From Mobula birostris (Eukaryota): a stretch of 64,000 nucleotides of DNA. The DNA is taken from positions 40,476,439-40,540,438 of the forward strand of contig NC_092371.1 in assembly GCF_030028105.1 (NCBI RefSeq), written 5' to 3'. Below the pieces are notes generated by a model. That model searched no databases and was not told where the DNA came from. It saw only the letters and a list, made by a program, of their open reading frames with translations. This document shows, piece by piece, positions 1,161 to 53,815 of this stretch (position 1 is the stretch's first letter; every line of letters begins with the position of its first letter). Position numbers and translations under genes: made by a program.

Positions 1161-1254
1161 AGTCCTGAAGAAGGGTCTCAACCGAAAATATGGACTCTTT
1201 ATTCATTTCCATAGATGCTGTGTGACTTGCTGAGTTCCTCCAGCATTTTGTGGG
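1161..1254 (+). mobile_element. Short Penelope-tail element with degenerate hammerhead motif, 16-bp TSD
   Basis: AATTACAATCCACTTC is duplicated at 1145-1160 and 1255-1270. The body matches the tail at 53673-53760. Confidence 0.85.
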
Positions 1255-2034
1255 AATTACAATCCACTTCCCTACTTACTACCAGTTTCCAGAACTCCAC
1301 AAAATACAAATTAAATGCAGAAACTGGAAATCTAAAATAACAACAGAAAATTCTGGAAGCACTCAGCAGGTCCAGCTGCATCAGTGTGAAGAGAAACAGA
1401 GTGATGCTTCAGGTCAAACAACCTTCATACCAGTTCCCTGCAAATCTCATACCACTCCTGATACCACCAAATCCCAGCAAAACCACCACACATCAGCTCT
1501 CCATCCTGAACCCATGCTACCCACGATACAATGAATTATCTTTGCAATGTTACCATATCCCAAAGACATCCTTTACTTCCATTGCCTCCAAATTACAGGA
1601 AGTGGCCTCTCACTGAGACTCCGGACCATTTTCCATGAACTACTGCTTTTCCTGAGCCATCATCCCATTACTGCTAGACCATGACCCCATCCCCACACTT
1701 TTCTAGTTCCCACCATTCCTAACTCGCTAAAAACTACTTTTCTTTATGAAAGCTCCTATTTACTATTTGCAAAGACATATAAAATATGCCATGCTACAGT
1801 GATGCATTTCCTGTCAGTGTGACAATTACTCTTGTAGTACTTCTCACTTGCACCAAAACTTTCCTCCAGTTTACTGCTTTTTCCATGCCTATCTCACTTG
1901 AACTTAGCTACTTTTAATCTCTACCTTTATACAGCCAACTTTCACAAGGCTAAAATTATCACCACCACTACCTCACCACCTTCTGAAGTAGCTAAATATC
2001 CACCAGCTCATAGAGAAAAGTTGAAGTATTGACA

Positions 2035-2960
2035 TTGGTATTGGTTTGTTATTGTCATATATACCAAGATGAAGTGTAAGGCTTGTCTTGCATAATGTTC
2101 ATTCAGATTAAATCATTGTGCAGTGCATTGAGGTAGAATAAGGCAAAACTATAACAATATAGAATAAAGTGAAAACTTACCAAAAAAATGCAGTGCAGGT
2201 AAATGATGAAGTGCTAGATCATAATAAGGTAGACTGTGAGGCTAAGAGTCCATTTTATTGTAGATGAGACCCTTTTAAGACTTTGAAAACAGTGGGATGG
2301 AGGCTGTCCTTAAGACTGGTGGTACATACTTTCAGGCTTTTGTACCTTCTGCCCAATGGGAGAGGGGAGAAGAGAGAATCTCCAAGTTTGGAAGGGTTTT
2401 TGATTATACTGGCTACTTTACTGAGGCAACAACAAGTATAGACAGAGTCCACAGAGGGGAGTCTGGTTCCTGTGATGTGCTGTGCTATGTCCACAGCTCT
2501 GCAGTTTCTTGTGATCATGTGCATAGCAGTTGCCGTACAAAGCCATTATACATCCAGGGAGATGTTTTCTATGGTGCATCGATAAACATTGCTAACAGTT
2601 AATGGGGCATGCTGAATTTCATTGGACTTCTAAGGAAGTAGAGGCATTGGTGAGCTTTCTTAGCCATGACAATGCGGTTGGACCAAGTCAGGCTATTGGT
2701 GATGTTTAACTGCTTGGAAGTTGAAGCTTTCAATCCTCTCAACCTCAGTATCTTTGATGTAGACAGGAGCATGTACACTGCCAGCTTTCTGTGGTCCAAC
2801 GACCAGCTCTTTTGTTTTGTTATCATTGAGGGAAAGGTTGTTGTTATAACATCAGGTCACTAAATTCTTTATCTCTGTCCTGTACTCCAACTCATTGTTA
2901 TTTGAAGTATGTCCCACTACAGTGGTGTCATCTGCAAGCTTGTTAGTGAAGTTAGAGCAG
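2035..2960 (-). mobile_element. Rex1/Babar-like LINE, 3' fragment
   Basis: Minus-strand peptides LTWSN...AKKAHQCLYFLR and SLFSPLPLGRRYKSLK match the Rex1/Babar ORF C-terminus; frameshifted. Confidence 0.75.
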
Positions 2961-3879
2961 AATCTGACTTGTTATTCATTTCCTTACTTCCTGAAGCATT
3001 CCCACTATTAACAATGGAGTGTGACAAGATACTCCCCAGAAGCATGAATAGTTCACCTCACATAATTATCAAGATGTTCCACACCACATAGTTCAATGCA
3101 ATGCACATATCCAGGACCCCATCACTACACCTCGCTACACCTTTACAAAACACATTTCATTTTCTCTCTAAGGATACTTAACTTCACCTCCCAATTCACA
3201 ACCTCTGCCAGCTAAAAGTACAGGGCAGAAGGTGCATGAGAAAACCCTGCGTTAAGATTATCCCCGTTATCAGTGCTGGTAAAAATACTGGACTTTTCCC
3301 ATCAATAAAGAGCATGGTTCTGTGCTTGCTGTACTTCTGAAGAGTCATGTTTTCGGCAAGAATTATTAGAAGTTGCAGTCAATTTTCATAGGTGTATCCC
3401 AATTCGTGATGCCTCATCTCATTTCCACCAAAACCAGCTAACTTAACTTGAGTAACCATACCCCCACAAGAGAGTCTGGCTCAGCTGTACACAATACAGT
3501 TCTGCTGAGCTATGAAAAGAATAACAATAAATTAAAAATAAAATGACATAGCTCGTAAATATAGCAAGTATTTTACATAATAGGAGAAAGAACTTGTATT
3601 TTTGTAGCATCATTCTTGATCTCAGCACCATGGAATCTTGAAAGCCAACAAAGTAAGTTTAATAAGTAGCAATTGTAAAATAGATTAACCCCTTATGGGA
3701 TATAATCTTGATGACTGCCCTCTTATTGTCATTAGTTGTTCATACCAAGAATTTGGCTACAGCTTAAAAAGGCTCCATCATACAAAGTATGCTGCGCTGG
3801 TTTATTGTGTTGTTAATTGCTTATACAGTATTTCATTCAAACTTAAATGACAGAATAACTGTGAAATATCAATTACACA

Positions 3880-4545: not shown

Positions 4546-4549
4546 ATCT

Positions 4550-5265: not shown

Positions 5266-5269
5266 ACCC

Positions 5270-8789: not shown

Positions 8790-9170
8790 ATATGAAATAA
8801 GAACAGAAAAGGATACTCAGCAGATCAGAGAACAACAAAGAAAGGTGAAATATTTAATGTTTTAGCTCAAAAACTGTTCATCAAATGGTTAACGTTCAAC
8901 ACTGAAAACATCAGAGACTGCAGATACTAGAATTCAGATACTGGGGAAATTAGCCTCCAGCAGATTTTCTTTCTGTGGGAAAGAAGAAGTAACTGCTGAT
9001 ATTTCAAGTTGAAACCTTGCATCGGGACTGTACTACTCCTCTGCAAAGTCTCTTCAAAATGTGTCAAAATTAAAGAAATATTCTTCCTCTCTCCAATAGG
9101 AGTCCTGTGATACTCTCTCACTTTTCACCCTCTATGGATTTCACTATTCTCCAGCTCTTTGACCACCTTC
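8790..9170 (-). mobile_element. Cluster of old Penelope-tail fragments
   Basis: ACTCAGCAGATCAG, GACTGCAGATACTAGAAT and TTTCAAGTTGAAACCTTGCATCGGGACTG resemble the younger tails. Confidence 0.45.
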
Positions 9171-10559: not shown

Positions 10560-10782
10560 CAAACAAGAGAAAACCTGCAGAATTCCAAGCAACACACACA
10601 AAATGCTGGAGGAACTCAGCAGACCAGGCAGCATCTATGGAAAAGAGTACAGTCAACGTTTCAGGCCGAGACCCTTTGCAGGTCCTGCTGAAGCGTCTCT
10701 ATTTGAAACGTCGGCTGTACTCGTTCCATTGATGCTACCTGGCCTGCTAAGTTCCTCCAGCATTTTGTGTCTGTTGTGTGTA
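10560..10782. mobile_element. Fold-back (palindromic) Penelope-tail element, 15-bp TSD
   Basis: TTGACAATACAGTGG at 10545-10559 and 10783-10797. Inverted arms of ~90 bp are centred on GCAGG-T-CCTGC (10678-10688). Confidence 0.88.
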
Positions 10783-10791
10783 TTGACAATA

Positions 10792-15015: not shown

Positions 15016-16054
15016 TATTTGAACTTAACTCCCACAGATGTTACTCAACCCACTGTCCCTCCAGTAGATTGTTTGTTGCTCCAGATTCCAGTAACTGCAG
15101 GCTCTTGTGTCTTCTGCTCCTGTTTTCTGTGTTCTGCCTTTCTTCTTGATTTGAATCCTTATCTAAAAGAAAACACTTTTGACATTGGAGAACATTCCCA
15201 AAGAAATGGAAAAAGTTCTGATGAAAGTTCATCAACCTCAATTACTCCACTTCTCTGGCTACAAGTTATGATGACCAACCTCTTGATTATATCAATATTT
15301 TATGCTTTTATTTCAGAGTTCCGCAACCTGTAGCATTTTTCTTTACTTCCTCAAAGGAATCTAAATAGACTGGGAAAGTAATTGAACAATTCGGAAATTA
15401 CTGTGGGCAAATAAAAGATAATCATCAAGGGAGCTAAACATGGAATTAGATTACCTGTTTAAATATAGGAGAGATTAAATCCAATAAAAACTTTTCTAGG
15501 AAACATTCAATTCAAGTTCTAAATAATAAAATATACATAATACAAATTTTCATTGTTAATATTTGAAGGAATATACAGGATAGACCAAAGCCAGTTGATG
15601 TAAGTATCATATTTACTGTACATTTCTTACTAAAAATGTCATTCTTTACCTGTAATTCAGTTTTTTCCCTCTAGTGATTACTTAGTGCATGTAAAACATC
15701 TTCAACCATCTTCATGCCGATTTTTAACTTAAACTATGTTCATACATTGTCTACAGCATATAATATCTTAGTGCTTTGCCCTATGATGTGAAACTTAATT
15801 TATTTTTCATGTTTGATTGTCAGGATATGGTACATATTAACCAGAATATCATTTTTCTATTATTTGATACTTAGTATGGCTGAAATTAAACCTTATATTT
15901 CTGGTGATAAAGGCAATCCTGTGTTACTGTTAGCTTGTTTGCAGTTTATATTGATGATGTTTAAAACACTCTCAATAGTATGTGACTTCTCTGAACAGCT
16001 AAGCACATAATCTTATAATCATTATCTAATAATGTTCAATTGAAATTATATTAA

Positions 16055-16205
16055 AAAATGCTGGAAATACTCTGCAGGTCAGACAGCATCTGTGGTAGGA
16101 GAAATAGTTCAAGTTGCCTCAAGTTGAAAATGCTTCAAGTTGAAATCCTGACAAAAGGTTTTCCACTTGAAATGTTAACTATCTCAGAGTTCCGGCATTT
16201 GTGAT
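16055..16205. mobile_element. Older fold-back Penelope-tail element
   Basis: AAATGCTGGAAATACTC at the left end and GAGTTCCGGCATTT at the right end, with an internal CCTGACAAAAGG…TGAAATGTTAACT. Confidence 0.5.
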
Positions 16206-20423: not shown

Positions 20424-20490
20424 ATGTCGCGTCGCAAGCAGGCGAAACCCCAGCACATCAACTCGGATGAACAGCTAATAGTTGGAAACG
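20424..20490 (+). CDS. SALL4: Spalt-like transcription factor SALL4, coding exon 1 (NuRD-binding N-terminal motif)
   Basis: ACCATG start, encoding MSRRKQAKPQHINSDEQLIVGN. MSRRKQAKP is the SALL NuRD-recruiting peptide, and HINS is typical of SALL4 (SALL1 has HFQS, SALL3 HLKS). The 67-nt exon is followed by a GTGAGT donor at 20491 (phase 1). Confidence 0.93.
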
Positions 20491-22578: not shown

Positions 22579-22600
22579 GTGTGTGTGTGTGTGTGTGTGT
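22579..22600. repeat. (GT)n microsatellite
   Basis: About 10 GT units, read directly. Confidence 0.9.
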
Positions 22601-29904: not shown

Positions 29905-30190
29905 ATGAGGGTAGCGTATGCTTTACAGCCCCAGCGATTAGTGTTCAATTCCCGCTGCTGCATGTGAGGAGTTTGAACATTCTCCCCGCGGTGGCGCAGG
30001 TTTCTTCTAGGTGCTCCGTTTTCCTGCCATGGTACAAGGACTTGCGTGTTAGGATCACTAAACTATAGGCATGCAATGTCGATGCTGGAAGCATTGTGAA
30101 ACTTGCAGGTTGCTCCCAGCACATCCTTGGATTGTGTTGGTCGTTGATGCAAGTGATGCATTTTACTGTATGTTTCATAAAGCTAATCTT
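29905..30190 (+). mobile_element. tRNA-derived V-SINE-like element
   Basis: B box GTTCAATTCC, then a V-domain-like GGAGTTTGAACATTCTCCCCG…GGTGCTCCGTTTTCCTGCCA, ending ATAAAGCTAATCT. Confidence 0.75.
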
Positions 30191-36100: not shown

Positions 36101-37317
36101 TGTGTAATGAATTTGACTGATTTTTCTCTCCTTGGTCTGAAGCAAGTCATACATCTGGATAAATTATCCACGTGTAGGGTGTATAGTGATTGTGATTAAG
36201 ATAGACTTGGAAACTATTAATATACCATCCGGTAGCTAATAGCAGACATTTAAGAAAATCATAGTACTGAGTATGCAAGTACAACTTGGAAATATTGTAA
36301 AAGAACAGGTATGATGATCAAAGTTAAGATAGTACAAAGCTTTTATTAGTTAAAAGGCAAGCTGGAGAATTTTTAGAATTTGACAAAAGATGACCAGACA
36401 TTCAGTGAGGAGGAAAATAAAAAAAAGCTTTAAGTTTGTATAGAAACGGTCAGCAAAAGAAGATGCAATCCATTTTTGAGGAAGATAAATTGGTAAATGA
36501 AGAATATAGATATTATGTCATTTCCCATTACTTCTATTTTTTTGTTTTGTCCTTGCAATGAGAATTAGAAACTTGAATTTCTTATTTAGTGAGTTTCTCG
36601 TTCTTATTAAAATAACCCCAAAATGTAATGTCATTAGAAAACAAACTGATCTCAAAAATCACTCTATCATCTACCATAGCTCCTGGAATGTTTTGAGTTG
36701 AGTAGTTTAGTTTATGATTCTCCAAAATGCCCAGGGTTTTAAAATATTCCGCATGGATTGGAAGACAAGTATAATGCTACAATTAAAGATGAGTTGGGTG
36801 GGGGGTGGAATTGGAACTATTAATCAGTCAGCCTCTTAGTTGGGGGAATTATTAAATTTTATTAACAAGGATATTGATGTAGATTTTAAAATAAATTATA
36901 AATGATACTTTTAAACATGTAAATAAGCTATGAACATGTTATTTTGATGATCAGGAGTTTGTAAATTGTGTGATTCAGATATCACTAAAAACTCCAGAAT
37001 TCTTGGGATTGATATTATTATGGATTTTCAAATACATTTTGTTTCGCAAACAATATGGGTGTTGGCTTTAGGAGCCCGTGATGTTGGTGAATTTGGAGTT
37101 GCATGTGAGTACACTGAGCAAGGAGGACATATTTCCCTTCTTGTCACTGTGTGAACGAAATGGGATTTTGCACCAATCCCAGCAGTTTGATGATAAACAA
37201 TAGGAATAAATGGGGGGGTGGGGCCTCATGGGTTGGCAGATGGTAACTACAGGGGCACTGATTATGTGTTACTTGGGCCTCACTATTCGGAATGGCATAG
37301 AAGAAGGTGTGTATTTG

Positions 37318-37645
37318 GCGCGCAAGGTGGTGCAGCTGGTAGGTCTGATGTCTCTCATTTCTCATGACCACAGTTTTGATTCTGACCTCTGATATTGTCT
37401 TCCTGGAGTTTTAGATGTTCTTTCTCCCTATGACCTCTTGGATTCCCCTTGGGTCCTCTGGTTTCCTTTCACATCCCAAAGATGTGCCGGTTAGTAGATT
37501 AAACTGCATTGTAGATATGCTGCTACTAAGGGCGGGTGAGTGGTAGCGTCTAGAGAGAATTGATGAGCCTGTGGGGAGAATAAAAAAAGGATAGTTGCGA
37601 GGCACCTGATGGGCCAAAGAGCCTGTTTCTATGCAGTAAGACTGA
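37318..37645 (+). mobile_element. HE1-like V-SINE with CR1-type tail
   Basis: Degenerate tRNA head, V domain (GGAGTTTTAGATGTTCTTTCTCCC…CTCTGGTTTCCTTTCACATCCCAAAGA) and tail GATGGGCCAAAGAGCCTGTTTCTATGC. Confidence 0.6.
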
Positions 37646-37904
37646 CCAAAATGCATAAGAATGTAAATGGGTGAAGTGAGTAATTTAAAACATGGCTATA
37701 AAATGTAATGGTAAGATTTGCATCTTGATTATAGGGGAAAAAATATTTCTTCAAAAAATAAGATTGTGAAATATTGATGCAGTTGGATGATCTTGTAGAT
37801 GAATCAAGGTAACATGGAATATCTCTAGAAATAGGGAAAACAGTAATATTAACCTTTTTAATTGTAATGGGATTGGAATCCAAAGGTAAAGAAGTCTTGT
37901 AGAA

Positions 37905-38683
37905 CAGCAGTCCCCAACCACCGGGCCGCAAAACATGTGCTACCAGGCCACGAGGAAATGATACGAGTCAGCTGCACCTTTCCTCGTTCCCTGTCATGCA
38001 CTGTTGAACTTGAACATAGGGTTGCCAACTGTCCCGTATTTGCCGGGACATCCCGTATATTGGGCTAAATTGGGTTGTCCCATACGGGACCGCCCTTGTC
38101 CCACATTTCCCCCGCTAAGGTAGAGCATTCCTATGAAACCTTCGTGCTGAAATGTCGTAAAGCGAAGAAGCAATTACCATTAATTTATATGGGAAAAATT
38201 TTTGAGCATTCCCAGACCCAAAAAATAACCTACCAAATCATACCAAATAACACATAAAACCCAAAATAACACTAACATATAGTAAAAGCAGGAATGATAG
38301 GATAAATACACAGCCTATATAAAATAGAAATAATGTACATACAGTGTAGTCAGGAAGATTAAGCCAAAACTGATTTGTAAGGGGAGAAAATCGGCTTGTA
38401 CGTGCATGCACACATCACATATGACGCACGTCATGCATGCGCAGTGCCCGCGCAAGGCTTCATGGTCATGGTAGTCTTTCCTGGGGCAAGCAGAAGTGCC
38501 CCGTATTTTGTCCCTTATTTGGGAGTGAGAAAGTTGGCAACCCTAACTGTAAAAGACATGTTGAGGTGAGTTTAACCCTCCTTAAACACCCCCCCCCCAC
38601 CACCACCACCGGGTTGGCTGGTCTGCAAGAATATTGTCAATATTAAACACCAGTCCGCGGTCAAAAAAGGTTGGGGACCCCTG
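37905..38683. mobile_element. hAT (Charlie-like) non-autonomous element, 8-bp TSD
   Basis: TIRs CAGCAGTCCCCAACC and GGTTGGGGACCCCTG. TTGTAGAA is duplicated at 37897-37904 and 38684-38691. Confidence 0.9.
38017..38545. mobile_element. Nested TIR element inside the hAT element
   Basis: Perfect 14-bp TIR TAGGGTTGCCAACT / AGTTGGCAACCCTA, with subterminal TCCCGTAT-like repeats. No clear TSD. Confidence 0.8.
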
Positions 38684-40147
38684 TTGTAGAATTTGTATTG
38701 GGTATTGCTGAGACCGAATCTGTATTTGAATCTTATGTAAGAACGTATTCCTCATTTTTTTTAGGAGGAGAATGCTGGAGAACTCTGGAGTGACTGAGTT
38801 ACTGTAAGAGAAGAAATTTAACCAGACCAAGTTTGTTTTTCTTGCCAAGCAGTGATCCTTCAGTTTTATAGGCAGAGCAGCTCTCTGAGCAAATGGAAAC
38901 GTTCAATATGAGAGCTATTTGAAGCACTGTTAATCCAGTAGCTGTATTCAATCGTGCATATTGTGCTATGCATATTTGCTCACACTCACATGCAAGTTTG
39001 GACCTAAACACAGTAGATTGTATCCACTGCCTCCTTCCTTGTTTCACATCCTCTTGAAACCTCACACCTGGAGTCCCCTCTCTTGCCTTTCACTGGCTCC
39101 CTGACCTCTTTTTGCCTGCACACAGACAGCCCATCTTCTCTCTCTCCCCCCCCCCCACCCCCACCCCCACCCCAGCATCTCCTTACGGAGCACACCAGTC
39201 CGCACTTGTAGCTGAGTTCAGGTTCTTGTGGGATCCACAGTTGGGATTGATGGTGTGATCTGTGGACCCTGTATTGAAGGATTTCTCCAGAGGTTACTTA
39301 ATTTCATCCAGTATTTAAATAAATGGGTGATTCTGAGGGGCTTACTTCATTGGCTAGGGAGATGCGAGTTAAGGTTGAAGCCTTGAACTGGAAGCTGGCT
39401 GTTTAGAAGATATTTACCCTTTGTTATTAATGAGCAGCTAGCATTATGTGAATCTGAAAGCTGTGGATGTGGATATGAAGTGAAATGGAGACTGTTGAAA
39501 AGGTGAACTGAGGTAAATCTGCTCTAATATGTAATAGTACAAAAGACTCCAAACAGCTGAGTGGCCTCTCCATGCTCTTTTATGGTTACTTAGCTACAGC
39601 TATTGTTCAAGTATCTTGATCTTGAAAGTGATGAGCTGTAGTGATGCATACCAATACCTGACTTGCCAAATCTCTATACACATTACCAAGCATTAAAGTG
39701 ACTGGGCGGATGGATTTTCTTCGGGGGCGCAGGCATCTGCCAGTAGGAATGTATGCCTCATCTCGTCCATGCTTTTGGGGGGAGGGGGAAACTCCTCCGT
39801 GAGTTGCAACTTCTAAGGTCGTGGATGTTGAGGAGACTCCCTAGCTTACTAAGTCCGTGAAGACATTTGCTGGCCACTATTCCCATGCCTGCTTGTTTTC
39901 CCCCATCACAGCTGTTTCTGTGACTCTTTCCCAGACACTTGTTTTTGTTCATTTCTGACTTGCAGACAGTTTGAGTTATAAACAGATCTCAGCAACGGGA
40001 CCCTTTTGTAACCTGGGAACTGCCTGTAGTGACTAAAACTTGTCTGATTGCTTCAACTTGCTTTTGCTCACTGACATTATGCATGGAAATGAAATAAATA
40101 TCTCTGTAGGTCTGAAGAGTTTGTTTGTTGTTTTGTCAACATAAAAA

Positions 40148-40530
40148 CCAATTGCCCACCATTGAGAACATCTACCATAAACACTGCCTGGGCAAGGCGA
40201 AAAGCATTATTGCATCTCACCCTAACCATGGATTTTTTTACTCTCCTCCCATCCGGTAGGCACTACAGGAGCCTCCGCTCCTGCACCAGCAGGCATAGGA
40301 AGAGCTTCTTCTCTGAGGCTGTGACCCTGCTGAACCTCACATCACAGCGCTAAGTAGTATTGCACCCATATTGTACTGTCTCAGTACTTTTATATTTGTG
40401 TACTGTAGCACTTTTTATTCGCAGTTATTTTGTAAATAACACTTTTTTGCATTTCTGGTTAGATGCTAACTGCATTTCATTGGCTTTGTATCTGTACTCG
40501 GTACAATGACAAAGTTGAATCTAATCTAAT
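40148..40530 (+). mobile_element. Rex1/Babar-like LINE 3' end
   Basis: FFTLLPSGRHYRSLRSCTSRHRKSFFSEAVTLLN, followed by a UTR and an (AATCT)n tail. Confidence 0.8.
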
Positions 40531-41429
40531 AAAATGAAGCATAAATAATTCAATGTCTTGAGAGAACTGTGTCTGTAGCATTTTTTTTTCAAAATTTGAC
40601 AAAAAGCTGGACTTTTGGTACTATCTATTGTGAAACATTCAACTAGTCTATCCTGCCACTTTTATATAAAGTAGAAATCCACTTGTGTATTATAGTTTTT
40701 AATTTAAAATTTTTATTACATTTTTGAGGTAAAAAAAAATTAGTTTTGAAAATATCTTGGTTGACTGGATTTGCATTTAGAATTGGAGTTGTGAAGTTGT
40801 AATACAATAGCTTTCTTCGCCATTCTTTGAAAGTCATGGCTTCTCAACTTGGGGTCTACAGACTACTCAGTTAATGATAGGTGTCCATGGCATAGACCTA
40901 TTGGCATCTGGTGAACATGCACTCTGATTCATGCAAATGTGTCCATTGGAAACCAGTAGTTAAGCTTAGCTTACCACTCTTGGAAATTAATCTCTTTATT
41001 TCTCTTCTATAAATTTAAAAAAACTCATAAGGCAAACATAATAAATTTCTGTTAAATAACTGGCTTAAGCCAAATAGGATTTAATTTTTCCAAAGGTTGA
41101 CTTGGTAGATTTAATTTAAATACAGGTTGTAAATTGATTTTAATTAATGCTATTTACAACATGAAAATTTATTGACAACGCTGAATAGTAAAGTTACTAA
41201 AAACCATAAGCCAAAGCCACACTGCTCCTCAAAGGCAGACCTTTTGTTTCCAGATATGAAGACAAAGCATTTAATATATCTTGGCCTTTTTCTGTTGCAA
41301 ACAGCTGCCTGAAACAAAGTTCTCTTGAATTTCACCATTATTTGCAAATCCTGCAAATACTACAACATGACATTTATAGGTAAAATTTATTGACTCATCA
41401 ACCTGGATAGAGAAGCTATTGTTTTTTTA

Positions 41430-42060
41430 AGATTGAGGATGCGCAGTCCTCTTTTATTGTCATTTAGTAATGCATGCATTAAGAAATGATACAATGTTCC
41501 TCCAGAATGATATCACAGAAACACAAGACAAACCGACTGGAAAAACTGACAAAAAACACATAACTATAACACATAGTTACAACAGTGCAAAGCAATACTG
41601 TAATTTGATGAAGAACAGGCCATGGGCACGGTAAAAAAAAAAGTCTCAAAAGTCTCTCGAAAGTCCCATCATCTCATGCAGATGGTAGAAGGAAGATGAA
41701 ACTCTCTTCCTGTCATGAGCTTCCAGTGCCACAAACTTGCCGATGCAGCATCCTGGAAGCACCCAACCACAGCTGACTCCTGAGTCCGTCTGAAAACTTT
41801 GAGCCTCCAACCAGCCCTCTGACACCGAGCGCTTCGGCCCCGGCAATAGGCAAAGCCGAGGATTTGGGGCCTTCCTTCCGGAGATTCTCGATTGCACAGT
41901 GGCAGCGAAGCAGGCATTTCAGAAGTTTCTCCAGGTGTTGCTCCGTGCTTCTCACGTCTGTCTCCATCAAATCAGGATTGTGCGCGGCCCCTAGTTAACA
42001 CATACGATTTCATTTCGGAGCGGCCGTGCACGCTGTGTCGCGTCGTCATCTTCTCCTTCC
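41430..42060 (-). mobile_element. ~630-bp non-autonomous retroelement, copy 2
   Basis: Colinear with 6353-7018. Confidence 0.75.
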
Positions 42061-42084
42061 CTCAGTCTATCACACAAAACCTCT

Positions 42085-43216
42085 TCAGTATCATGTGACA
42101 TGTCATCGCTACATCAACTTACCATACTGCTTGAGAGTAAAATCTTTTCAATTTCTTGTACTGCATCTTGTCCTAGCGTTTTACCCACTATGATTTTACA
42201 ATACTAGGTTCTCACCAACTGTGATTTTCTTTCCCCCTCTCTTCCTCCCCCGCCCCCACCCCACTTCTGGATAATAAGTTCTGCTTCTAAATAACTTGCT
42301 TCCTGAACCCTTTTACTGACTGTGAAATCATTAACAAAAGCTTTACTCTGTTTTGAGATTCCCAATAGTCGTTTAAAATAAATAACACTTTTATGTATCA
42401 TATGGCTGTGATTTGTAGTTAAGTGTCTTTTCAATTTGGCTGGAGCCATTGCTACATTTGCAAGTGGCTTGCCACAGACTAGGCACAATGGAATAGGACA
42501 ACTTGGATCACCAGTCCATGTAAAACCCATTGATCAGTAGCTTTCATTGTAATGATGGGCTTTTTTAATGTCTATTGTTGCACTAGTGCAGTGAAATGAC
42601 ACAGAAAATTGTACCATCAGCCAGACATGTATGTAAAACACAGGGGTTAATAAAATATAATAAAAAGAATGGCATAATAAATAACTAAACAAGAAAACTG
42701 CAAAAACTACGAAAACTTCACAATGTAACTCACTTCTAATCTACACAACCGACCTTTTTGTAACATTCACAACAGCAAAGTGGCAGGCCAGCAGCTAAAC
42801 TGTGGCATGTAAAAATAAATAAATAAAATTCCTTTAAAATGAAAATTTCCCTCCAATTTTCTACTACACTTGCAGCTTGTAAGGGAAACTTAGCGGAGGT
42901 ATTCGGGAGGGAGAGGCTGACGTCACGGCCCAAGTTGGGTGAGTCCATTCAATGCTTGGAAAACGAGTTTCATGCTCCCCATCTTGCTGTCCTTCCCTCT
43001 GTGTAATGCAGCGCTCACCATTTGTCAAAGGCCTCCCCATCTCACGTCACAAACTGGGAATAAAATAAACCAAATAATCATGGTCCCAGTGCGCACTGCC
43101 ACACTGGGCTGAGAGACCGCTAATGAGATTGCGAACGGGGCTGCTCAGCAGTCCGGGCACTAGTCTCGTACATTACGTGAAGTTCAAAAAAAACTTTCGA
43201 CCTCTCTTAAACCCTG
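42085..43216 (-). mobile_element. hAT Charlie/Buster-type transposon 5' fragment with transposase N-terminus (pseudogenised)
   Basis: MGFTWTGDPSCPIPLCLVCGKPLANVAMAPAKLKRHLTTNH is the BED-type finger of Buster/ZBED5-like transposases. A candidate terminus CAGGGTT lies at 43216, next to CTGTAGAG. Confidence 0.78.
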
Positions 43217-43414
43217 CTGTAGAGAGTCTATTCTGATTGTGTCGCATCCTTTAGAGCTAGATTGGAGTCTACCACTGATTTTTTTTTTCCTCTTTCTAGT
43301 TGGTGGATGATCTGATTTGGTTAGCCCTTTGATTCACTTTCAGTTCAAGGAACCTACCTTAAATACTGTACTTCATGGATTTGGGTGTGATAGAATGGGG
43401 TAGTTTGTGCTGAT

Positions 43415-43950
43415 TCAGCATGTCATCTAAAACTTTAGCACACTTCCGACAGATAAATAGTGAATAGCCTGACTGGTTGCACTATGGCCTGGTATGGAAA
43501 CACCAATGCCCAACACTGGAAAAGCCTACAGACAGGTGGTGAATACAGCCCAGTCCATCACAGGGAAAACACTCCCCACCATTAAGCACTGCCACAGGAA
43601 AGCAGCATCCATCATTAAGTATCTCCTCCATTCAGGCTATTATTGTTCTTCACCCATTATTCTACTGAACCAGAGTGAATAACCCACTCACCTCAACTCT
43701 GAGCTAATTCCACAAACTATGGACTTACTTTCAAGGACTCTAGAAATCATGTTTTCAGTATTATTTGTTTATTTATTATTTTATATTTTCACAGCTTGTC
43801 TTTTGCACATTGGTTGTTTGTCAGTCTTTGTAGTTTTTCATTGATTTGTAGTATTTCTTTGATCTACTGTGAATTCCTGCAAGGTAATAAATCTCAAGGT
43901 GGTGTATGGTGACATTATACATACTTGAATAATAAATTTACTTTTGAATT
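43415..43950 (+). mobile_element. Rex1/Babar-like LINE 3' end
   Basis: LTGCTMAWYG and QVVNTAQSITGKTLPTI…KAASIIK remnants plus a 3' UTR. Confidence 0.72.
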
Positions 43951-46790
43951 TTGCAACCTTGGAGAAAGTGAAGAATTCCCTGTTCTGTAATTTTAAAAGG
44001 TTTGCTTGTATGGTCTTTCAATAGGATAAAGTTTCCCAAGATGATTGAAGTGTTATCAAATAAGACTTGATGCAGACCCACAAAGATGGTCAAAAACTTT
44101 GGAGGGTTTTAAGGAGCACCTTTTTAAAGGAGACCACCAGTGCTGAGGTTTGAGGAAGAAATTCTATAACTTGGGGGGCCTATTCAATTATTGAAGGGGC
44201 TGTGAACGCAAGGATGTGCAACCAGCCAGAAAAGGAGCAGTTCGGATACCATGCTGTGTTTTCAAGCTGACAGGAGTGATTGAGATGAGGTGGGGTGGGC
44301 TACAGAGGGAATTGTAAATGAGAGTGAAGATCTTAAGCTAAAAAAAACTGCTAGGGGAACTCAGCAGGTTTCTTAGTTTTTATTTTGCCTCAGATTCTAG
44401 CGTCTGTGTTTTCTTGCCTCCAGTGAAGGTACTTTTAAAGTTGTGGCGTGAATGGACCAGGTGGGAGGGTAGACCAGTGAATATATGAGGTATTGATAAA
44501 ATGGCACTTAGTGGAAGTTAGGATATAGATGACAAAAAGTTTTGCATGAATTGAAGTTTATATGGTGTAAAAAAAAAGATTGGACTAATTGTATATCATT
44601 GTTAGGTAACATCTAAGCTGCTAAGAACGGTCAGTGTGTACATCTTTCTTCAAAGCATTGGTTATCTTAATTTTGTAATCAGGAATATGACTTGCATTTT
44701 CTTTATTTTGGGGTCTGATGCTGTTGCAGGATTATAATACTTATTATTTAATTTGCTTTCAAGAATGCCTGACATTTTTTTTGTTGCACCTTACTGGTTT
44801 TCATTAACTATGGAAGTTTGAGGACTGCAATGTGTTGGAGCTCCCTCTAGAGTTAAAATAACTAATGAAAAATGTGTGCGTTCAAGATTCTTTACAAGAA
44901 GCCTCTTGAATTGTATAAAAACAAGGTCTTCATCGTCCTGTTTTTTTTTGTTGCTTAATTTTTGTGTTTATTTATTCACTTGTCATTGCTGCCAAGCGCA
45001 CATATCCATTTTAACCTGGGTCTCATTAAACTGTTCCTGTCAACTAATTTATTTCCATTCCTTCACTTTCAACCTTTGTGGTCTTTTGTTCATGTGATTT
45101 GACCAAGGATTTAATTCTGACAATAGATCAAACTTCAGTGTAACATAGTAAACTAATTTTAAAAATGCATATTGCACATTTACCAGTAAAAGAATGTTTG
45201 TTCTACAATTAGCTAAAGTTTATATGGTGTTAAGGTAATATGGTTACATAACTTTTAAAATTAAAGGTGCTACTTGTGTGTTTGGAGGGGGGAAGAAGGT
45301 GAGAAGAGAGCACAAAGCTATGGGCATTTTGATTATCCTGTTTCTAATCTTAAATACACAGATGTTCAGTGATTATTTAGCATGGTGATTTAGTGTTGCT
45401 GACAACCCCTTCAGGCATTTCCTAATGGACTTAACTGGCAGTAATTAAACTGATTTGTTTGTGGTTTAATTTTAGTTTCTTCCATTTAAAGGGATGTTGT
45501 CGTCTTCATGATGAAATTCCAGGCCATGGTTAAATGCTGTAAATGAAGTAATAATCTGTTTTAAGAGAAAACATTCCGCAAGTTTAGTTTTTAAAAGATG
45601 CATTTTTACTTCATAGGATTTTGTACTTCAATGCAGATTGAATCTATTTACCTCTAATATATGTGCCACATCACATCTACACGTCTAGGTACATGCAACA
45701 GAATTGTGAGAATCCTGGGAGTTTGTAAGATCTTTTGTCCTGGGATCTTTCCTCATTGGGATTGAACTTCTGTTGACACAATCTTGATGTCTCAGATAAA
45801 ATAGAGAGATTGTGTGTAATGTTGAACAGTTGAGAGCATTTAAAGGGAGGGGGTGGAAAGAACTGAATTGCATCTGGTCATACTGGAAACTGTCCGGTTA
45901 AAAACAGATTCTGAAGTTATTTGAAGTTCTAAATTTGCAGTTAGAATTCAGAAGAAAATGCAATTTGTAAGTATGACTAATGGCATGGCTTGTTAAACAT
46001 AATAAGTAGTGTCCAATTGGCTTTGATACTATCCACTTGAGTAATTGAACTCTTAAGTCAGGATTTGTACAATACGGAAGGATTCTTTCTTTACAGTATC
46101 AGAATTGGAAATAAATCCTGAGAAATGGCTTTTGAACTTATTTTAGAAGTTGGTTTCTGCCTAAATCTGGTCATCTGATTAAATGTAGTTTTAATTGTTT
46201 TTAGCTTGCCTGCATTTGTTAACCATAATTGATCTGATATGAGGAGAATAGTAAGGAAATTGAAGGAAGAACGCCACTTGCAGCAGGTTTAAAGAAAACA
46301 TGTTTGGACATTGGAGGAAATCAATCAATAACAGGTCCCATTGTGTGTAATGAAATATTAAGCTACGTGAAGTTTGCAGAACAGCTCCAAAGATTTCACT
46401 GTGATTGTAAATGAATAGAATTAACTTGACTGATCACAGAAATAATATAATTTTTTTTTAAGAACACTGATTAAATCTATGTTCCCTCATGGCAGTAAGC
46501 ACACCTCGTATGTGTGATTTAGCTGGGCAGTAGGTGACTGGTATTTGTAGACAGGAGACTTTAGTCTTTTTGGGAATCCTGCTCTTGGTATCTGTGAGTG
46601 GCTTATCATACATAGTACTGGAAGCCAGATCACTAATTTTCACTTCCAAAATGAAACAGACTAAATGAAATGTTAACTCATTATGGTTTGCGCTTGCATT
46701 TTAATTGTATATTTTCCATCAAATTGCACCTACTTTCAAAGTATGTATACATTATACAACCTTGAGACTCGTCTCCTAACAGACAACCAT

Positions 46791-46795
<5 letters not shown>

Positions 46796-46834
<39 letters not shown>
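46796..46834. repeat. (TG)n microsatellite
   Basis: About 19 uninterrupted units, read directly. Confidence 0.95.
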
Positions 46835-46835
<1 letters not shown>

Positions 46836-47501
46836 TCTTTTTTTAAAAAAAAGACCATTGAATACCCAGTGTGCAGAGGCAAAAAAAACATCATTGCATA
46901 CAATAACTGCAAGCAGATAGCATTCTGAACTGAAGTCTGCAAAGAGCATCTCATAGTTCAGTGCAGACCTGAGTTGCGGAACAGCAATCTGAACCAGTTT
47001 GTCCCTCGCCTTGACACCCCGACACCCTGGCCTTCTCAATCTGGCCTAGCACCTAAATCGATGTCCAAACATCCGGTACAACCTCTCTGATACGCTGTGG
47101 GGCCAGGACTCCGCTGCCTCGATTCAGCCCTATACTTAAATCTCTGTCCAAACACATCGGGTTCAATGGTCCTGATCCACTCTGGTGTCTGGACCTCGCT
47201 GCCCTGATTCAGCCTGTAATCAACCTTTCTGATTTGGCCCTGTATTTGAGCCTCCGGGCAAACATTGCGTTCAGTCGATTAAGCAATTGAGAGAAGCTGC
47301 GCTTTCTTAATTGATATTCTCTATTTTTGTCAAAGTTGGCAAAAATAATGTGTTAAATCTAATAATTCTGTTAACTGGAGGGCTCATTTCATTAACAGGG
47401 TGGTGAGGGGAAATGCTCTAAAGGATGCTTTGCGAAGTCTGTTTAGAAGAATGATGGGTGTTTGTTGATACTAAGCAGTTACTGCTGTTATTGCTTTGCA
47501 G

Positions 47502-50117
47502 GTTCTCAAGTATGTCAAAACGACGGAGTTGGGGAAACAAGCGCAAAGAAATGCAGGACTGAAGAAACCAACATCTGTAAGAAATGTTGTGCTGAGTTCT
47601 TTGATCTTTCCAAGTTCCTTGAGCACAGGAAAAATTGCACTAAAAACCCACCAGTTTTGATTATGAATGAAGGCGAGAAGGAAATGCCTCCTAAGGACTG
47701 CCCAGAGTCTTGTCCAGATAACTTTCCGAATGGCCAAATGAACAATCAATCTAAAAATAAAGATAGCCCCGAAGAAAGAATGCGTGAAGAGAGTGAAACT
47801 GCTGAAATGAATGTTGATAATGTAGAATCTCAAAAACCATGTGCCTCTAATGCTGCTACAAGTTTACATCCAGCCTCTGATGTTAGCTATGTTTCCCAGT
47901 CTAAGATACCAAACACTAATGTCACATTGGAGACTATTCACAACACTAAAGTTGCAGTGACTCAGCACGTTCCAGACGATGCTTCTGCCAACAACTCAAA
48001 TGCAACTGCAAGCGTCAATGTCATTCCAATCTTGCTTGAGCAGTTGGTCTGCCTGCAGCAGCAACAGCTTCAACAGATACAGTTAACTGAGCAAATCCGC
48101 ATCCAGGTGGCAACGATGGCACCTCATTCTCTTCATCCATCTATTGTTGCAGCTGCAGACCCCCTTAAAGCATTGGGGGCACACCTTTCACAGCAGCTTT
48201 CGGCTGCTGCTGCTTTAATTGGGCAGAAAGTGGGTAGCCAAAGCTACTCGATAGAAGGTTTTAAGCCAGTACAGGTACCTCATTCTTCTGTTGGTTCAAC
48301 TCATTTTAACAAAAGCTTGCACCATTCCTCTGAGCCGGCGTCTCTCCAGACAACGAGCACCCTAACTTCACTGACTTCCAAACCTGATTCCATCTTGTGC
48401 TCTGAAAATCCAGCCAGGCTTAAGCATGGCAACCTTACCAGCTCGGTTGCAAGATTTCCAAATCCCTTGCTACCTCGGTCCCCAAATACAGCAACTATTC
48501 ACAGCCCACTGATTGGACTATCTGCAGCTTCAGCAGCACGAAATCAGAAAGGCAAGCCTCCGAACGTCGCCGTATTTGAAACAAAGTCTAATTCGGAAGA
48601 GTCCTTTTTCAAACACAAGTGCAAGTTCTGTGGCAAAGTGTTTGGAAATGACAGTGCCCTGCAGATTCATATCCGTTCTCACACAGGTGAGCGACCTTAC
48701 AAATGCAATATCTGCGGCAATCGTTTTACAACTAAAGGCAATCTGAAGGTTCATTTCCAGCGACACAAGGAGAAGTACCCGCATATCCGAATGAATCCAT
48801 ATCCTGTTCCAGAACATTTGGACAATGTTCCAACCAGCAGTGGAATTCCATATGGTATGTCTATACCTGTTGATAATTCTGCGAATTGGGCAGACACCAA
48901 ACCTGTCTTGCAAACTTTGCCCAATTCCATTGGATTGAATCTGTCGACTGCTTTTGAGGACACTTCAGATAAAGCACCAGCAAGTGATTTTCTGCAAAGG
49001 CGATCTCCAGCAGTAAGTGAAACTGCATCTTTGTCATCGAATATCAGCAGCTACGAGTCAAATGCTGAAGCTAAGTCTACAAATGAGAATGGCAATCCAC
49101 CTACTTCCATAATGTCTGAAACCTCAAAGCCCAAGCAACCTTTTGGTAATGTACTTGATAATAGCCAAACGTCTGAGACATCCAAGCTTCAACAGTTAGT
49201 GGAAAATATAGACAAAACATCAGCTGACCCAAATGAATGTGCTGTGTGCCATCGTATACTAAGTTGTCAGAGTTCACTGAAAATGCATTATCGTACCCAC
49301 ACTGGTGAAAGGCCTTTCAAATGTAAAGTTTGCGGCAGAGCTTTTTCCACAAAGGGCAACCTCAAGACTCACTATGGAGTTCATAGGGCAAAACCTCCTT
49401 TGCGGGTACAGCACTCGTGCCCGATTTGCCACAAGCGGTTCACTAATGCTGTTGTTCTTCAGCAGCACATTAGAATGCACATGGGAGGTCAAATCCCAAA
49501 CACCCCTCTGCCTGAAGGCTATTATGATGGTTCTGATCCAGAGCCAGCTTTAGCAGATGAAAATGCTGAACTTGACAGCAGTTTTACGGATGAAAATATG
49601 GATGAATCTGAGTTGGATGGGGAGAAAAGCGCAAAGGTGCCAGCAAGTGAGTATTCGAAACCAGTTTTGCCTTACAGTGACTTACCGGCCAACTCTCCTC
49701 TGCTGGTTTTCTCCAATATAGCTGCTTTGGAAAGTCAGATGAAAATGATTAACTCTAACTCTAATGTAAGCTTGCAGCGGCAGAGCAGTTTAAAATCCAG
49801 TGAGAATGGCTCTCCTGAAAGTGAAGGAATGGCTAATGATTCTCTTTCGGCAGTAGGAGATCAAGAACACCAGAATAACCAGAGCCCAGGTGCTGCGGAA
49901 TCCGCATTGTTTCAAGCTTCGTCTCCTGCTAACAGCTTTAATGGCAGCCACGTGTCCAAGTCGCCAGGATTCCCTAACGAAAATGTAGCAACAAAAACTG
50001 AGCCTGTTGAGACATCTGAACTGACAAATGATGCTGCGTTAGACTTAACATCTGCCAATATTCATCGGAAGGTTAAGGAAGAAGTCACTAATGTTCCGTT
50101 TACTAATGGGGATTGCA
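47502..50117 (+). CDS. SALL4: SALL4 large coding exon 2 (C2HC finger, Q-rich region, double and triple C2H2 clusters); gene continues beyond the window
   Basis: Acceptor TTGCTTTGCAG ends at 47501, and its phase matches exon 1 (G+GT = Gly). The open frame contains a C2HC finger (47576-47638), [19 protein letters not shown], a C2H2 pair with the SAL box FTTKGNLK, and a C2H2 triplet. Donor GTAAGT at 50118 (phase 1). The exon ends before a further finger pair, as in SALL4 rather than SALL1/3. Confidence 0.95.
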
Positions 50118-50857
50118 GTAAGTATGGAAAGAATATATGTAGTTTAAACTTTGCTATTTAATTTTGGTATGGTCTCCAGTCTATTCTTTGTGACTCTGCT
50201 CCATTAACATCGTAGCTTATAATTGGGTGCTCATTTCAATAGGCCTTGGTAATTGTAAACAGGAACCTTTTGTACAAAAATAAAACTTGTGTAAGTGAAT
50301 CTCAGCACTTTTAAAGTATGCTGAGATCTGATGAGATAAGTGAAGTGGTTTCGTGGTGTAAGACAAGCGATGGCTGGTCTCCCACCCTTCTGTCAAATAA
50401 AGAGGAAGAAGAAAACTATTGTTCTATTTCCTCTTGTAACTGTCTGTTTCTTGGGCAGTGATTGTTGTCCAGTAACTAATCCTGGCCTATTTCTGTATTA
50501 TTGCTGAGGAGGAAACTGATTTTAGTTCCCTTTTGACTGCCAATTTCAAGAAGCTTTGGAGCAGTCTTAAAACTGTCTTTATCACTGGTCAAGCTGAGAT
50601 CAGTGGTTTTGAGACCAGAGATTGAACCTGAGAACTTTTCAAAATAAAGTGTCTATCAACAGCATTTCATCAGAGAGATGGGGTGGGGGCACGTCAATGC
50701 ACTCTGAACTGCAAGGAAACTGAAGGTATTGAGTATCAGGGTAGTGCTATATTGTAGAACAAGATTTGTAACAAATGCCAGATATTTTCAGTGAATGAAG
50801 GATTGTTGCAAATAATCTTATGATTATAGACATAAAATATATTATAAGCAACGTTTC

Positions 50858-50990
50858 TCACATACAAATGCTGGAGGAACTCAGCAGGTCAGGCAGCACC
50901 TATGGAGAAGTGTAAACAGTCAACGTTATGGGCTGAGACCCTTTTTCAGGACTGGAAAGGAAGTGGAGACGTCCAAAATAAAAATGGAGA
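50858..50990 (-). mobile_element. Penelope-tail fragment with degenerate hammerhead motif
   Basis: The minus strand reads CAGTC CTGAAAA AGGGTCTCAGCCC ATAA CGTT GACTG, followed by the shared tail. Confidence 0.75.
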
Positions 50991-51630
50991 AGTTGAAGAT
51001 AAAATGTATCATGTCACTTAAGCAATTGGCTACGATTGATGGAAATTATCCAATCATCTCCGCCTTGTTTGGGAAAAGTGCTGGCACTTTTTCCTAATAG
51101 AATAACAATTAATTTTCTAATAAGCTCTTCTCAGGCTTCCAGTGGGGTACAGGTATCAGTTATACAGGTTATAATCAATACGTACCCATGTTGGAAGCCT
51201 GTGAAGAATTTATTTGTCATGTATGCTGGGAAAGCACTAGGTCCTTTTTCCAATTAATTTTCTGTTCAAATATTAACAACTTTGAATGTTAATTTGAACT
51301 TCATTATTAAAGTACACTTGTTCATGTTTTAAGTATCCCCAGCAAGTTTAATGTCTACAAAAAAAAACTGGATTGCTCCTCTGACCTAAAACTGGTTTAA
51401 CCTCCTATTTAACTAGTGTGTCCTACAGATTATCACCCTATTCCTTTCTTTGATAAAAGGACACAATAGAATGTTTGGTTTTAGTAGTACGTGCTCATGG
51501 TGATTACATTCAACTGCAATAGTGCAGTAAGAATGTATTTATTATTTGAATAGCGCAACAAAAGTTTAAATTGGAGAATATAAAATGCATTGATGGCCTG
51601 AAAGATGCAATGATAAGCAATTGAGCAGTA

Positions 51631-53815
51631 TCGCACACAAAAAATGCTGGTGAACGCAGCCGGCCAGGCAGCATCTATTGGAAGATGTACAGTCGACGTT
51701 TCGGGTCGAGCCTCTTCGTCAGGATTAACTGAAGGAAGAAATAGTAAGAGATTTGAAAGTGGGAGGGGGAGATCCAAAATGACAGGAGAAGACAGGAGGG
51801 GGAGGGATGGAGCTAACAGCTGGAAAGTTGATTGGCAAAAGGGATACGAGGCTGGAGAAGGGAAAGGATCATGGGATGGAAGGCCTAGGGAGAAAAAAAG
51901 GGGGAGGGGGTGCCCAGAGGATGGGCAAGGAGTTATAGTGAGAGGGACAGAGGGAGAAAAAAGAGAGAGGAAAAAAAGGGGCAAAAAATAAAAATAATAA
52001 TAAATAAGGGATGGGTACAAAGGGGAGGTGGGGCGATAACAGAAGGTAGACAAGTCAGTGTTCATGTCATCAGGTTGGAGGCTACCCATACGGAATATAT
52101 GGTGTTGTTCCTCCAACCTGAGTGTGGCTTCATCTTGACAGTAGAGGGGGCTGTGGATAGACATATCAGAATGGGAATGGGACATGGAATTAAAATGTGT
52201 GGCCACTGGGAGATCCTGCTTTCTCTGGCGGACAGAGTGCAGGTGTTCAGCGAAACGGTCTCTCAGCATGCTTCCGGTCTTGCCAATATGTAGAAGGCCA
52301 CATCGGGAGCACCGGACGCAGCATATCACCCCAGACGACTCACAGGTGAAGTGTCACCTCACCTGGAAGGACTGTCTGGGGTCCTGAATGGTGGTGAGGG
52401 AGGAAGTGTTAAGGGCATGTGTAATAGTTCTGCTTACAAGAATAAGTGCCTGGAGGGAGATTGGTGGGAAGGGATGGGGAGACGAATGGACAAGGGAGTC
52501 GCAGGGTGAGGGCAGGGTGAAAGTTGGAGGCAAAGTTAATGAAGTCAACGAGCTCAGCATGCGTGCAGGAAGCAGCACCAACGCAGTCGCAATGCAGTTC
52601 CTCAAGTTTACCTGGTCCATTTCCAACACCTCCTTCTCCTGATCTTTGTCATAAGCTGTCTCAAGATGTCCACCTTAAGCCTATGGACTCTCACAGCTAC
52701 CTGGACTATTCCTCTTCCCACCCTGTCTCTTGCAAAAATGCCAACCCCTTCTCGCAATTCCTCCGTCTCCGCTGCATCTGCTCTCGGGATGAGGCTTTTC
52801 ATTCCAGGACGAAGGAGATGTCTTCTTTTTTTTAAAGAACGAGGCTTCCCTTCCTTCTCATATCATTTCTCTGCCCCCCCCCCCAACCCCCATCCCTTCC
52901 CACCGATCTCCCTCTTGGCACTTATCCTTGTAAGCGGAACAACTACACATGCCCTTACACTTCTTCCCTCACCACTATTCAGGGCCCCAAACAGTCCTTC
53001 CAGGTGAGGCGACACTTCACTTGTGAGTCGTCTGGTCTGATATACTTTGTCCGGTGCTCCCGTTGTGGCCTATATATTGGCGAGACCTGACGGACGCAGG
53101 CTGGGAGACCATTTCACTGAACACCTACGCTCCGTCCGCCAGAGGAAGCAGGATCTCCCAGTGGCCACACATTTTAATTCCACGTCCCATTCCCATTCTG
53201 ATATGTCTATCCACGGCCTCCTCTACTGTCAAGATGAAGCCACACTCAGGTTGGAGGAACAACACCTTATATTCTGTCTGGGTAGCCTCCAACCTGATGG
53301 CATAAACATTGACTTCTCTAACTTCCGTTAATGCCCCACCTCCCCTTCATACCCCATCCCTTATTTATTTATTTATTATTATTATTTTAATTTTTCCCCT
53401 TTTTTTTCTCCCTCTGTCCCTCTCACTATAACTCCTTGCCCATCCTCTGGGCTCCTCTCCCTCTTTCTTTCTCCCTAGGCCTCCTGTCCCATGATCCTCT
53501 CCCTTCTCCAGCCTCGTATCCCTTTTGCCAAACAACTTTCCAGCTCTTAGCTCTATCCCTCCCCCTCCTGTCTTCTCCTATCATTTTGGATCTCCCCTCC
53601 CCCTCCCACTTTGAAATCTCTTACTATCTCGGGATCAATAAAGTATGTCTATGTCTATCTCTTCTTTCAGTTAGTCCTGACGAAGGGTCTCATCCCAAAA
53701 TGTCAACTGTACCTCTTCCCATAGATGCTGCCTGGCCTGCTGCATTCACCAGCATTTTTTGTGTGTGTTGCTTGAGTTTCCAGCATCTGCAGATTTCCTC
53801 GTGTTTGCATTTTTA
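51631..53815. mobile_element. Penelope-like element (GIY-YIG + partial RT) with inverted duplicated 3' region, 12-bp TSD
   Basis: GIY-YIG peptides occur on both strands (CSRCGLLHIGKT…RFAEHL…ATHFNS; LRLEEQHLIFCLGSLQPDGIN). The RT thumb KPMDSHSYLDYSSSHP…PFSQFLRLR is present. AATTGAGCAGTA is duplicated at 51619-51630 and 53816-53827. Confidence 0.9.
51690..51726 (-). ncRNA. Minimal type I hammerhead ribozyme motif (core intact, stems partly mutated)
   Basis: The minus strand reads AAUC-CUGACGA-AGAGGCUCGACCC-GAAA-C-GUC-GACUG. The CUGANGA, GAAA and GUC elements are in the correct order and spacing. Confidence 0.65.

Follow-up and report, generated by a model that had tools for sequence, protein, structure and literature searches.

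Minimal hammerhead motifs in a Mobula birostris window as probable decayed copies from the terminal repeats of a Neptune-type Penelope-like retrotransposon

A stretch of 64,000 nucleotides from Mobula birostris (NCBI RefSeq assembly GCF_030028105.1, contig NC_092371.1, positions 40,476,439 to 40,540,438 of the forward strand; hereafter the window) contains a dispersed family of hammerhead ribozyme motifs. We hold, with good confidence, that these motifs are decayed copies of the minimal hammerhead ribozyme in the terminal repeats (pLTRs) of a high-copy Neptune-type Penelope-like retrotransposon, an element for which we consider it likely that transcripts begin with the motif's first base and that most of them enter the genome as uncut templates. 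A minimal hammerhead in a Neptune-type element is of a known kind, an expected instance of a published association; what sets it apart is its scale, with hundreds of thousands of decayed motifs and approximately 25,000 identical intact ones in one genome.

The six motifs that a sequence-only reading had picked out were found where it had placed them, on the same strands, and every one is damaged. The motif at 1161-1196 is dead through damage in stem II and the cut triplet; that at 50917-50954 has intact stems I and II, but carries changes at G8, G12 and A13; that at 51690-51726 keeps its core and has mismatches in both stems; and that at 53673-53709, with a predicted cut after 53704, has G12 replaced by A. 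The remaining two form the arms of the head-to-head unit at 10560-10782, a long-tailed arm on the minus strand (motif ~10648-10684) and a short-tailed arm on the plus strand (motif ~10680-10716). Three fainter copies suspected earlier, at 8995-9030 (minus), 16147-16180 (plus) and 32765-32790 (plus), are real. A profile built from the tail downstream of the motif only, so that the ribozyme itself was not selected on, finds 13 copies within the window, none of which passes an intactness test comprising the core, the cut triplet and the three inner pairs of stems I and II. The Rfam covariance scan that had been suggested as a check gave no hammerhead match in the window even at E<=10, in a scan that covered the window copies. 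Identification as a hammerhead therefore rests on the pattern of core and stems and on the literature, not on an Rfam score.

The same profile was applied to a blind sample of 101 unselected 10-kb stretches at round coordinates of large contigs, one of which was all N. It recovered 166 tail copies, against none in a reversed-sequence control, giving a density of 1.64 per 10 kb (bootstrap 1.30-2.00) and, extrapolated to the 4.0-Gb genome, ~0.5-0.8 million tails; the family is indeed very abundant, as had been supposed. Exact matches to the 35-base young motif number 25,092 (control 0). Among the 99 blind copies reaching across the motif, the most frequent base agrees with the consensus first proposed at every position except 11.1, where T (51 copies) exceeds C (45). 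The core CUGANGA / GAAA / UH stands in order as the majority at each core position, and is absent from five of the six window copies taken individually. The extra base after A9 is A in 95/99 copies, and C15.2 and G16.2 are in the majority, giving the palindromic, loopless stem III. Most CpG-prone positions are altered in ~25-40 of the 99 copies (G8 in only 6), compared with ~2-18 elsewhere, a concentration that supports the earlier attribution of the deviations to CpG decay. Intactness is retained by 17/166 blind copies, and stems I and II both fold in intact copies; covariation of the stems between lineages is limited to one swap in a noisy 16-copy majority, plus wobbles. The youngest master (loci L113-L124 and L076-L087) has T at 11.1 and keeps its other CpGs, a G10.1-U11.1 pair or an alternative A-U register replacing the conserved G-C. 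Two further loci (L267 and L268; G000:C17:81867249 and C17:87109795) are identical in copy and flanks, in opposite orientation and 5 Mb apart, and represent a recent segmental duplication or an assembly duplicate.

These motifs belong to a gene-bearing element. A genome search with the endonuclease peptide of the window returned 158,743 first-look candidates, and in 11 of 12 loci (L113-L124; L119 is a shorter tandem) two same-strand motifs ~3.5-3.7 kb apart enclose long gene frames, which bears out the view that these are minimal type I hammerheads of Penelope terminal repeats. The full unit of 3.5-3.7 kb consists of the motif, a leader of ~140 nt, a gene encoding reverse transcriptase (RT), zinc-finger linker and GIY-YIG endonuclease, a 3' untranslated region (UTR) of ~300 nt, and the motif again, each motif lying ~300 nt past the stop codon and ~140 nt before the first ATG of the next unit. 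Locus L076 retains a single frame of 961 amino acids with RT, a CX4CXXC linker before the endonuclease and, C-terminally, a GIY-YIG domain; its Pfam matches (RVT_1 6e-5, GIY-YIG 2e-3) are both below the cut-off, its Atlas features score 0.98, and a PDB sequence search with the open reading frame (ORF) gave 0 matches. Both marks of the Neptune clade, the CX2-5CXXC linker and CCHH, can be read in the translation, and the domain arrangement points to a Neptune-type element, the linker being shared in reduced form with Nematis. Partial tandem pLTRs, an inverted truncated copy and an optional tail are all found in the family, and some full loci carry an inverted copy upstream. Window 51631-53815 is a single insertion in which two inverted arms, each carrying the GIY-YIG endonuclease end, the 3' UTR and the motif, surround two RT fragments, the whole being flanked by a 12-bp target duplication (51619-51630 / 53816-53827).

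The sequence-only reading had proposed a short mobile family that may be retrozyme-like. On such a view the short copies would be a separate, non-autonomous family, excised by the hammerheads it carries and multiplied in the form of small (circular) RNA. Copies of this length are indeed very numerous, 38/166 blind copies lie in short head-to-head units, and Penelope-derived non-LTR retrozymes have been reported in one cartilaginous fish (bioRxiv 10.64898/2026.07.22.740005). Retrozymes, however, are head-to-tail arrays with one ribozyme per unit, whereas among our neighbour pairs within 250 bp 19 are head-to-head, one is tail-to-tail and only 3 of 23 are tandem; Tandem Repeats Finder (TRF) detected no array of the motif within the window. 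A unit cut out by its ribozyme would begin at the cut site, where none of 62 mapped copies (below) begins. Young stubs are ~92-98% identical to a full-length copy. In selected sets, tails of lineage A (92/196 copies), B1 (38/188) and B2 (14/46) also occur ~300 nt behind the Penelope endonuclease end, so the stubs are not a separate family; the old C tail was found there in 0/15. The stubs also have target duplications of their own: of the three window units whose duplications measure 12-16 bp, two are stubs (1161-1254 and 10560-10782). All three duplications start with (A)TT, at which the Anolis enzyme is reported to prefer to cut (PMC11167929), and duplications of >=9 bp flank 4/8 young solo stubs, against 8/500 in a control. 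The retrozyme explanation is thus largely refuted, and we regard it as highly improbable.

To locate the start of the inserted copies, 5' ends of young lineage-A copies were mapped on the genomic copy L116. The set of 62 copies combines 36 rows, less two misassigned older copies, with 30 loci, less the query locus and one with an internal deletion. Twenty of the 62 ends lie within -5 to +7 of the motif's C3, compared with 17 in the other 123 positions of the interval -100 to +35, a per-base density ~11 times that of the local background. Stem I's first base is where both the full-length copy L121 and the window stub at 1161 start. At their other end, blind copies stop at +84 to +99 (15/34) or +116 to +136 (19/34), so that insertions end ~ +95 or +129 past C3; the stub 1161-1254 ends at ~ +90. 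Enrichment of 5' ends at the cut site (+26 to +30) was looked for and is absent: 0/62, where 0.7 were expected. The simplest reading of these ends suggests an RNA that starts at stem I and templates with an uncut 5' motif. Were RT stalled by structure, it should halt at the fold's 3' edge rather than its 5' edge. Initiators follow the pattern pyrimidine-pyrimidine-A, and the front-edge site fits it. An RNA start at stem I is also in keeping with Drosophila Penelope, for which an internal promoter with an initiator has been described (PMC2377424).

Several points weigh against this placement of the RNA start. It is deduced from DNA ends only, the -5 to +7 bin was picked after the data were seen, and with 0.7 ends expected the cut-site test has little power, showing no enrichment but no depletion either. 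Duplications of >=9 bp were obtained for only four of the eight young solo stubs, and some of these are offset. Moreover, many front-edge ends fall at the junction of two head-to-head copies, and the position of the break there could be biased by short microhomology. Taken further, this last point would make the whole pile an artefact of insertion chemistry, produced by fold-back or microhomology at a short TCAG/CTGA inverted repeat that does span the front edge in lineage A, rather than a mark of the RNA start. Solo copies and one full-length copy nevertheless start at the same edge, older B copies without that repeat include the same start (window 1161 and several others), and the initiator pattern fits the site; we consider an artefact quite improbable.

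We retain an RNA start at stem I and propose the following course of insertion. The element's enzyme would nick an AT-rich site and prime reverse transcription inside its RNA at one of two points (~+95 or ~+129). Priming in the 3' repeat would give long copies, variably 5'-truncated, while priming in the 5' repeat would likely give stubs of 100-130 bp that run off the RNA at its 5' end, often as head-to-head pairs. The RNA itself would begin with the motif and probably be inserted mostly uncut.

What the ribozyme might do in such a cycle was approached through predicted folding. In the best monomer fold stems I and II are closed, yet G5-A6-Y7-G8 is paired with the cut-triplet region, an off state whose probability in three lineage-A copies is 0.72, 0.93 and 0.26. 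Single copies, tested on the six window motifs, fold no more stably than their shuffles (z -0.3 to -1.7). For dimers, the active double hammerhead reaches -10.9/-16.1 kcal/mol against -29.7/-33.5 for the inactive dimer. Cleavage as a dimer would have its basis in the literature, the computed energies not favouring the active form; such nearest-neighbour energies leave out tertiary contacts, a caveat that extends to the predicted off state. Minimal hammerheads of Penelope-like elements are described as weakly active, and in dimers only (PMC4209133); an off monomer and a disfavoured dimer fit this, as well as the protein-assisted activity described by Frangieh et al. 2024 (PMC11167929). In the proposed cycle the monomeric ribozyme is predicted to be off, and cutting would depend on a second copy and, probably, on the protein of the element. 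An upstream hairpin acting as off-switch of the 3' ribozyme copy was considered and rejected: young copies do show it, but in seven copies the upstream sequence, once shuffled, performed equally well in 1-33 of 40 trials, and one copy behaved in the opposite way.

A more sceptical interpretation is that the motif now serves mainly as an internal promoter or protein-binding element, its hammerhead fold being a non-cleaving vestige in this lineage. The motif does coincide with the proposed RNA start, energies disfavour the active dimer, a core-mutant subfamily has amplified (below), and work in Anolis saw no reads ending at the cut site and insertion that proceeded without need for cleavage (PMC11167929). 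Yet pairing has been kept by changes at the level of lineages, with U-A replacing C-G at the first pair of stem I in old lineage C (a majority drawn from 16 copies, and noisy) and lineage A showing G-U wobbles, and related motifs of Anolis and schistosomes cleave under some conditions (PMC11167929, PMC4209133). A vestige is rather unlikely in our judgement.

One lineage bears directly on this question. The C at core position 6 of the copy at 10681-10717, first read as a private lesion, proved to be the mark of a subfamily. Judged from counts and linked characters, A6C is an inherited subfamily, a single lineage that spread with core A6 changed to C and includes the unit at window 10560-10782. 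Exact-match counts are 31 for C6 (C7 form only), 115 for A6, 6 for T6 and 2 for G6; the excess of C6 over G6 and T6 indicates that C6 was inherited from a master and did not arise copy by copy. C6 is also tied to a short spacer (6/7 vs 0/35, Fisher 1.3e-6), and C6 copies occur behind the endonuclease gene as well. The change slows other hammerheads in Mg2+ (PMC3088659, PMC7151607); in two of our copies it removes the off-state pairing (probability 0.00-0.02). Because the A6-to-C subfamily amplified widely, the ribozyme is likely not required for insertion, and amplification without a canonical core is what this subfamily shows. The motif sequence nevertheless appears to be under constraint in master elements: the late C6 and A majorities differ in 2/34 motif columns (position 6 and a CpG effect), against 58/218 flank columns. 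The flank rate is inflated by alignment slippage, however, and the constraint could reflect an overlapping internal promoter instead of catalysis. Another core-variant subfamily may exist in an old variant whose core position 9 is C, the extra A coming next, of which ~6 copies were noted (including window 8995-9030 on the minus strand, L158:1275, L173:3211, L137:7074 and L141:4359).

The history of position 6 can be carried one step further, tentatively and at a little under even odds: the master lineage may have exchanged A6 for C, continued to multiply in two or more consecutive subfamilies and later recovered A6, either by back-mutation or by template switch, on the branch to the now-dominant family. 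A hand count of the first 100 among 464 matches that have the older upstream flank gave A6 in 53, C6 in 42, G in 3 and T in 2; with the later upstream flank, C6 is found in 37/43 B-tail copies (selected sets); and lineage A, defined by its tail, has A6 in 125/126 copies. At four flank sites lineage A has the late-C6 state in 8-9 of 9 copies each, compared with 0-4 of 11 old A6 copies, and position 6 is the only site grouping lineage A with old A6. The four derived sites thus place the dominant A6 lineage after C6, which suggests that A6 was restored. In a first tree of 41 rows, with lineage A cut from 66 to 14, A is nested in C6 and monophyly of C6 is rejected (p-AU, approximately unbiased test, 0.006). 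Other results pull the opposite way. Three of the four sites are confined to a span of five bases in a low-complexity, pyrimidine-rich tract and three helped to define the late-C6 group, while C6 monophyly is not rejected by an endonuclease-only tree (58 of 97 rows, p-AU 0.22) or by a larger UTR tree (61 rows, p-AU 0.20), neither of which, as trees of individual copies, settles the order of the subfamilies. Two loci combine characters of both groups: L281 (G000:C26:2660350-2664023) has a B-type tail with G6 and an endonuclease region sister to lineage A (99/97), and is an intermediate or a chimera, and in L241, upstream of 1563 (minus strand), a C6 element is directly adjoined by a tail of lineage-A type that itself has C6, possibly a chimera of the two lineages. 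A literature search outside Lünse et al. 2017 and some supplements found no report of a core-mutation subfamily with reversion in Penelope-like hammerheads. If restoration is true, the element would preserve a natural record of loss and rescue in which cleavage is dispensable for insertion and selected over the long run, the return of A6 being rare evidence of selection on catalysis in vivo; old A6, C6 and restored A6 would then form a ready series for testing the function of Penelope hammerheads.

The features of the window are collected in Table 1. From 32508 onward the copies sit in introns of a host gene of the spalt/SALL family, whose later exons beyond exon 2 lie outside the window. Two of these motif copies (32765 and 53673) are in the sense orientation and both are catalytically broken by sequence, so no effect on the host gene is expected. 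Its second intron also holds an isolated inverted repeat with ~30-bp arms (51112-51220), possibly a small DNA-transposon remnant, with weak matches to microRNA models far below threshold. Elsewhere lie another dispersed repeat of ~650 bp in two copies 71% identical (6370-7014 and 41444-42057), decayed long interspersed nuclear element (LINE) fragments with RT and endonuclease-like frames (12370-14460 and 59068-63825), which we take to be of CR1 type, a fragment with a Spin-doc zinc finger (42204-42533, minus strand), likely derived from a DNA transposon, and a frame of 139 amino acids without a Pfam match (54446-54865, minus strand).

Table 1. Penelope-derived copies and the host gene in the window (window coordinates)
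Feature	Position	Strand	Details
Solo stub of Penelope terminal repeat, older B1 type	1161..1254	+	16-bp target duplication 1145-1160 / 1255-1270
Additional old lineage-C copy, absent from the sequence-only reading	1342..1430	-	tail profile
Faint old copy, variant type with C at core position 9	8995..9030	-	
Head-to-head stub insertion, A6C (CUGC-N-GA core) subfamily	10560..10782	both	15-bp target duplication 10545-10559 / 10783-10797
Other tail remnants	11887-11917; 17167-17206; 44340-44369	-; +; -	tail profile
Old lineage-C remains in opposite orientations	16053..16180	tail -, motif +	tail 16053-16099, motif 16147-16180
Host gene, spalt/SALL zinc-finger family	20424..50118	+	inferred exon 1 20424 to ~20490, exon 2 ~47502-50118
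Two old copies head-to-head, both motifs broken	32508..32850	-; +	32508-32600 (-), 32765-32850 (+)
Solo stub, B1 type	50858..50969	-	motif 50917-50954
Inverted 5'-truncated arm of lineage-A Penelope insertion	51631..52499	-	endonuclease C-terminus 52042-52407, 3' UTR, motif, short tail
Two reverse-transcriptase-region fragments in opposite orientations, inside 51631-53815	52507-52588; 52600-52865	-; +	blastn to L116, tblastn with L076 ORF
Forward arm: zinc-finger linker and GIY-YIG endonuclease (broken), 3' UTR, motif, long tail	52886..53815	+	linker and endonuclease 52917-53325

These copies amount to a fossil record of the question what the Penelope hammerhead is for, their ends suggesting an RNA that begins with the ribozyme and goes uncut into the genome. 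Other elements place them in context. In phage Bcep176 a hammerhead with the same A6C core change is reported to be slow in Mg2+ and to favour Mn2+ (Perreault 2011, PMC3088659; Naghdi 2020, PMC7151607); here the change marks an amplified subfamily of a vertebrate retrotransposon with a loopless, dimer-type motif. Non-LTR retrozymes (bioRxiv 10.64898/2026.07.22.740005; PMC7229834) likewise have type I hammerheads derived from Penelope repeats, but are tandem arrays with a ribozyme per unit, unlike the solo or head-to-head ends described here.

Closer parallels are found among Penelope-like elements (PLEs) themselves. As described for the Neptune clade of endonuclease-bearing (EN+) PLEs by Craig et al. 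2021 (PMC8557442), our family has a C-terminal GIY-YIG domain with CCHH and the CX2-5CXXC linker, partial tandems, an inverted 5'-truncated copy and an optional tail of 30-40 bp. For PAc, a Poseidon element of Anolis, an internal RT start, cutting at ATT and a protein-assisted hammerhead unneeded for insertion in vitro have been reported (PMC11167929). Our copies resemble it in their AT-rich target starting (A)TT, in a hammerhead within the repeat near the gene start and in two 3' ends ~35 nt apart, like the two internal RT starts of PAc. The PAc ORF begins at stem II, whereas the first ATG of the long frame lies here ~140 nt past the cut site, which rules out an ORF starting inside the motif as in Anolis.

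Cervera and De la Peña 2014 (PMC4209133) reported minimal hammerheads from the pLTRs of metazoan PLEs; two of the three supplementary files of that study contain no shark or skate entries. The motifs share with theirs the type I topology, a short stem I, an extra nucleotide between 9 and 10.1, palindromic positions 15.2-16.2 and the lack of a loop III, as well as presence in both terminal repeats and mass dispersal as single truncated copies and inverted pairs. They differ in that stem II has 4 bp, against 7-8 bp in the schistosome family, and that the youngest master has G10.1-U11.1 in place of the conserved G-C. Copy number is far higher here, ~0.5-0.8 million tails against the 4,000-9,000 motifs given for coelacanth and Xenopus in the same study, the two figures having been obtained by different methods.

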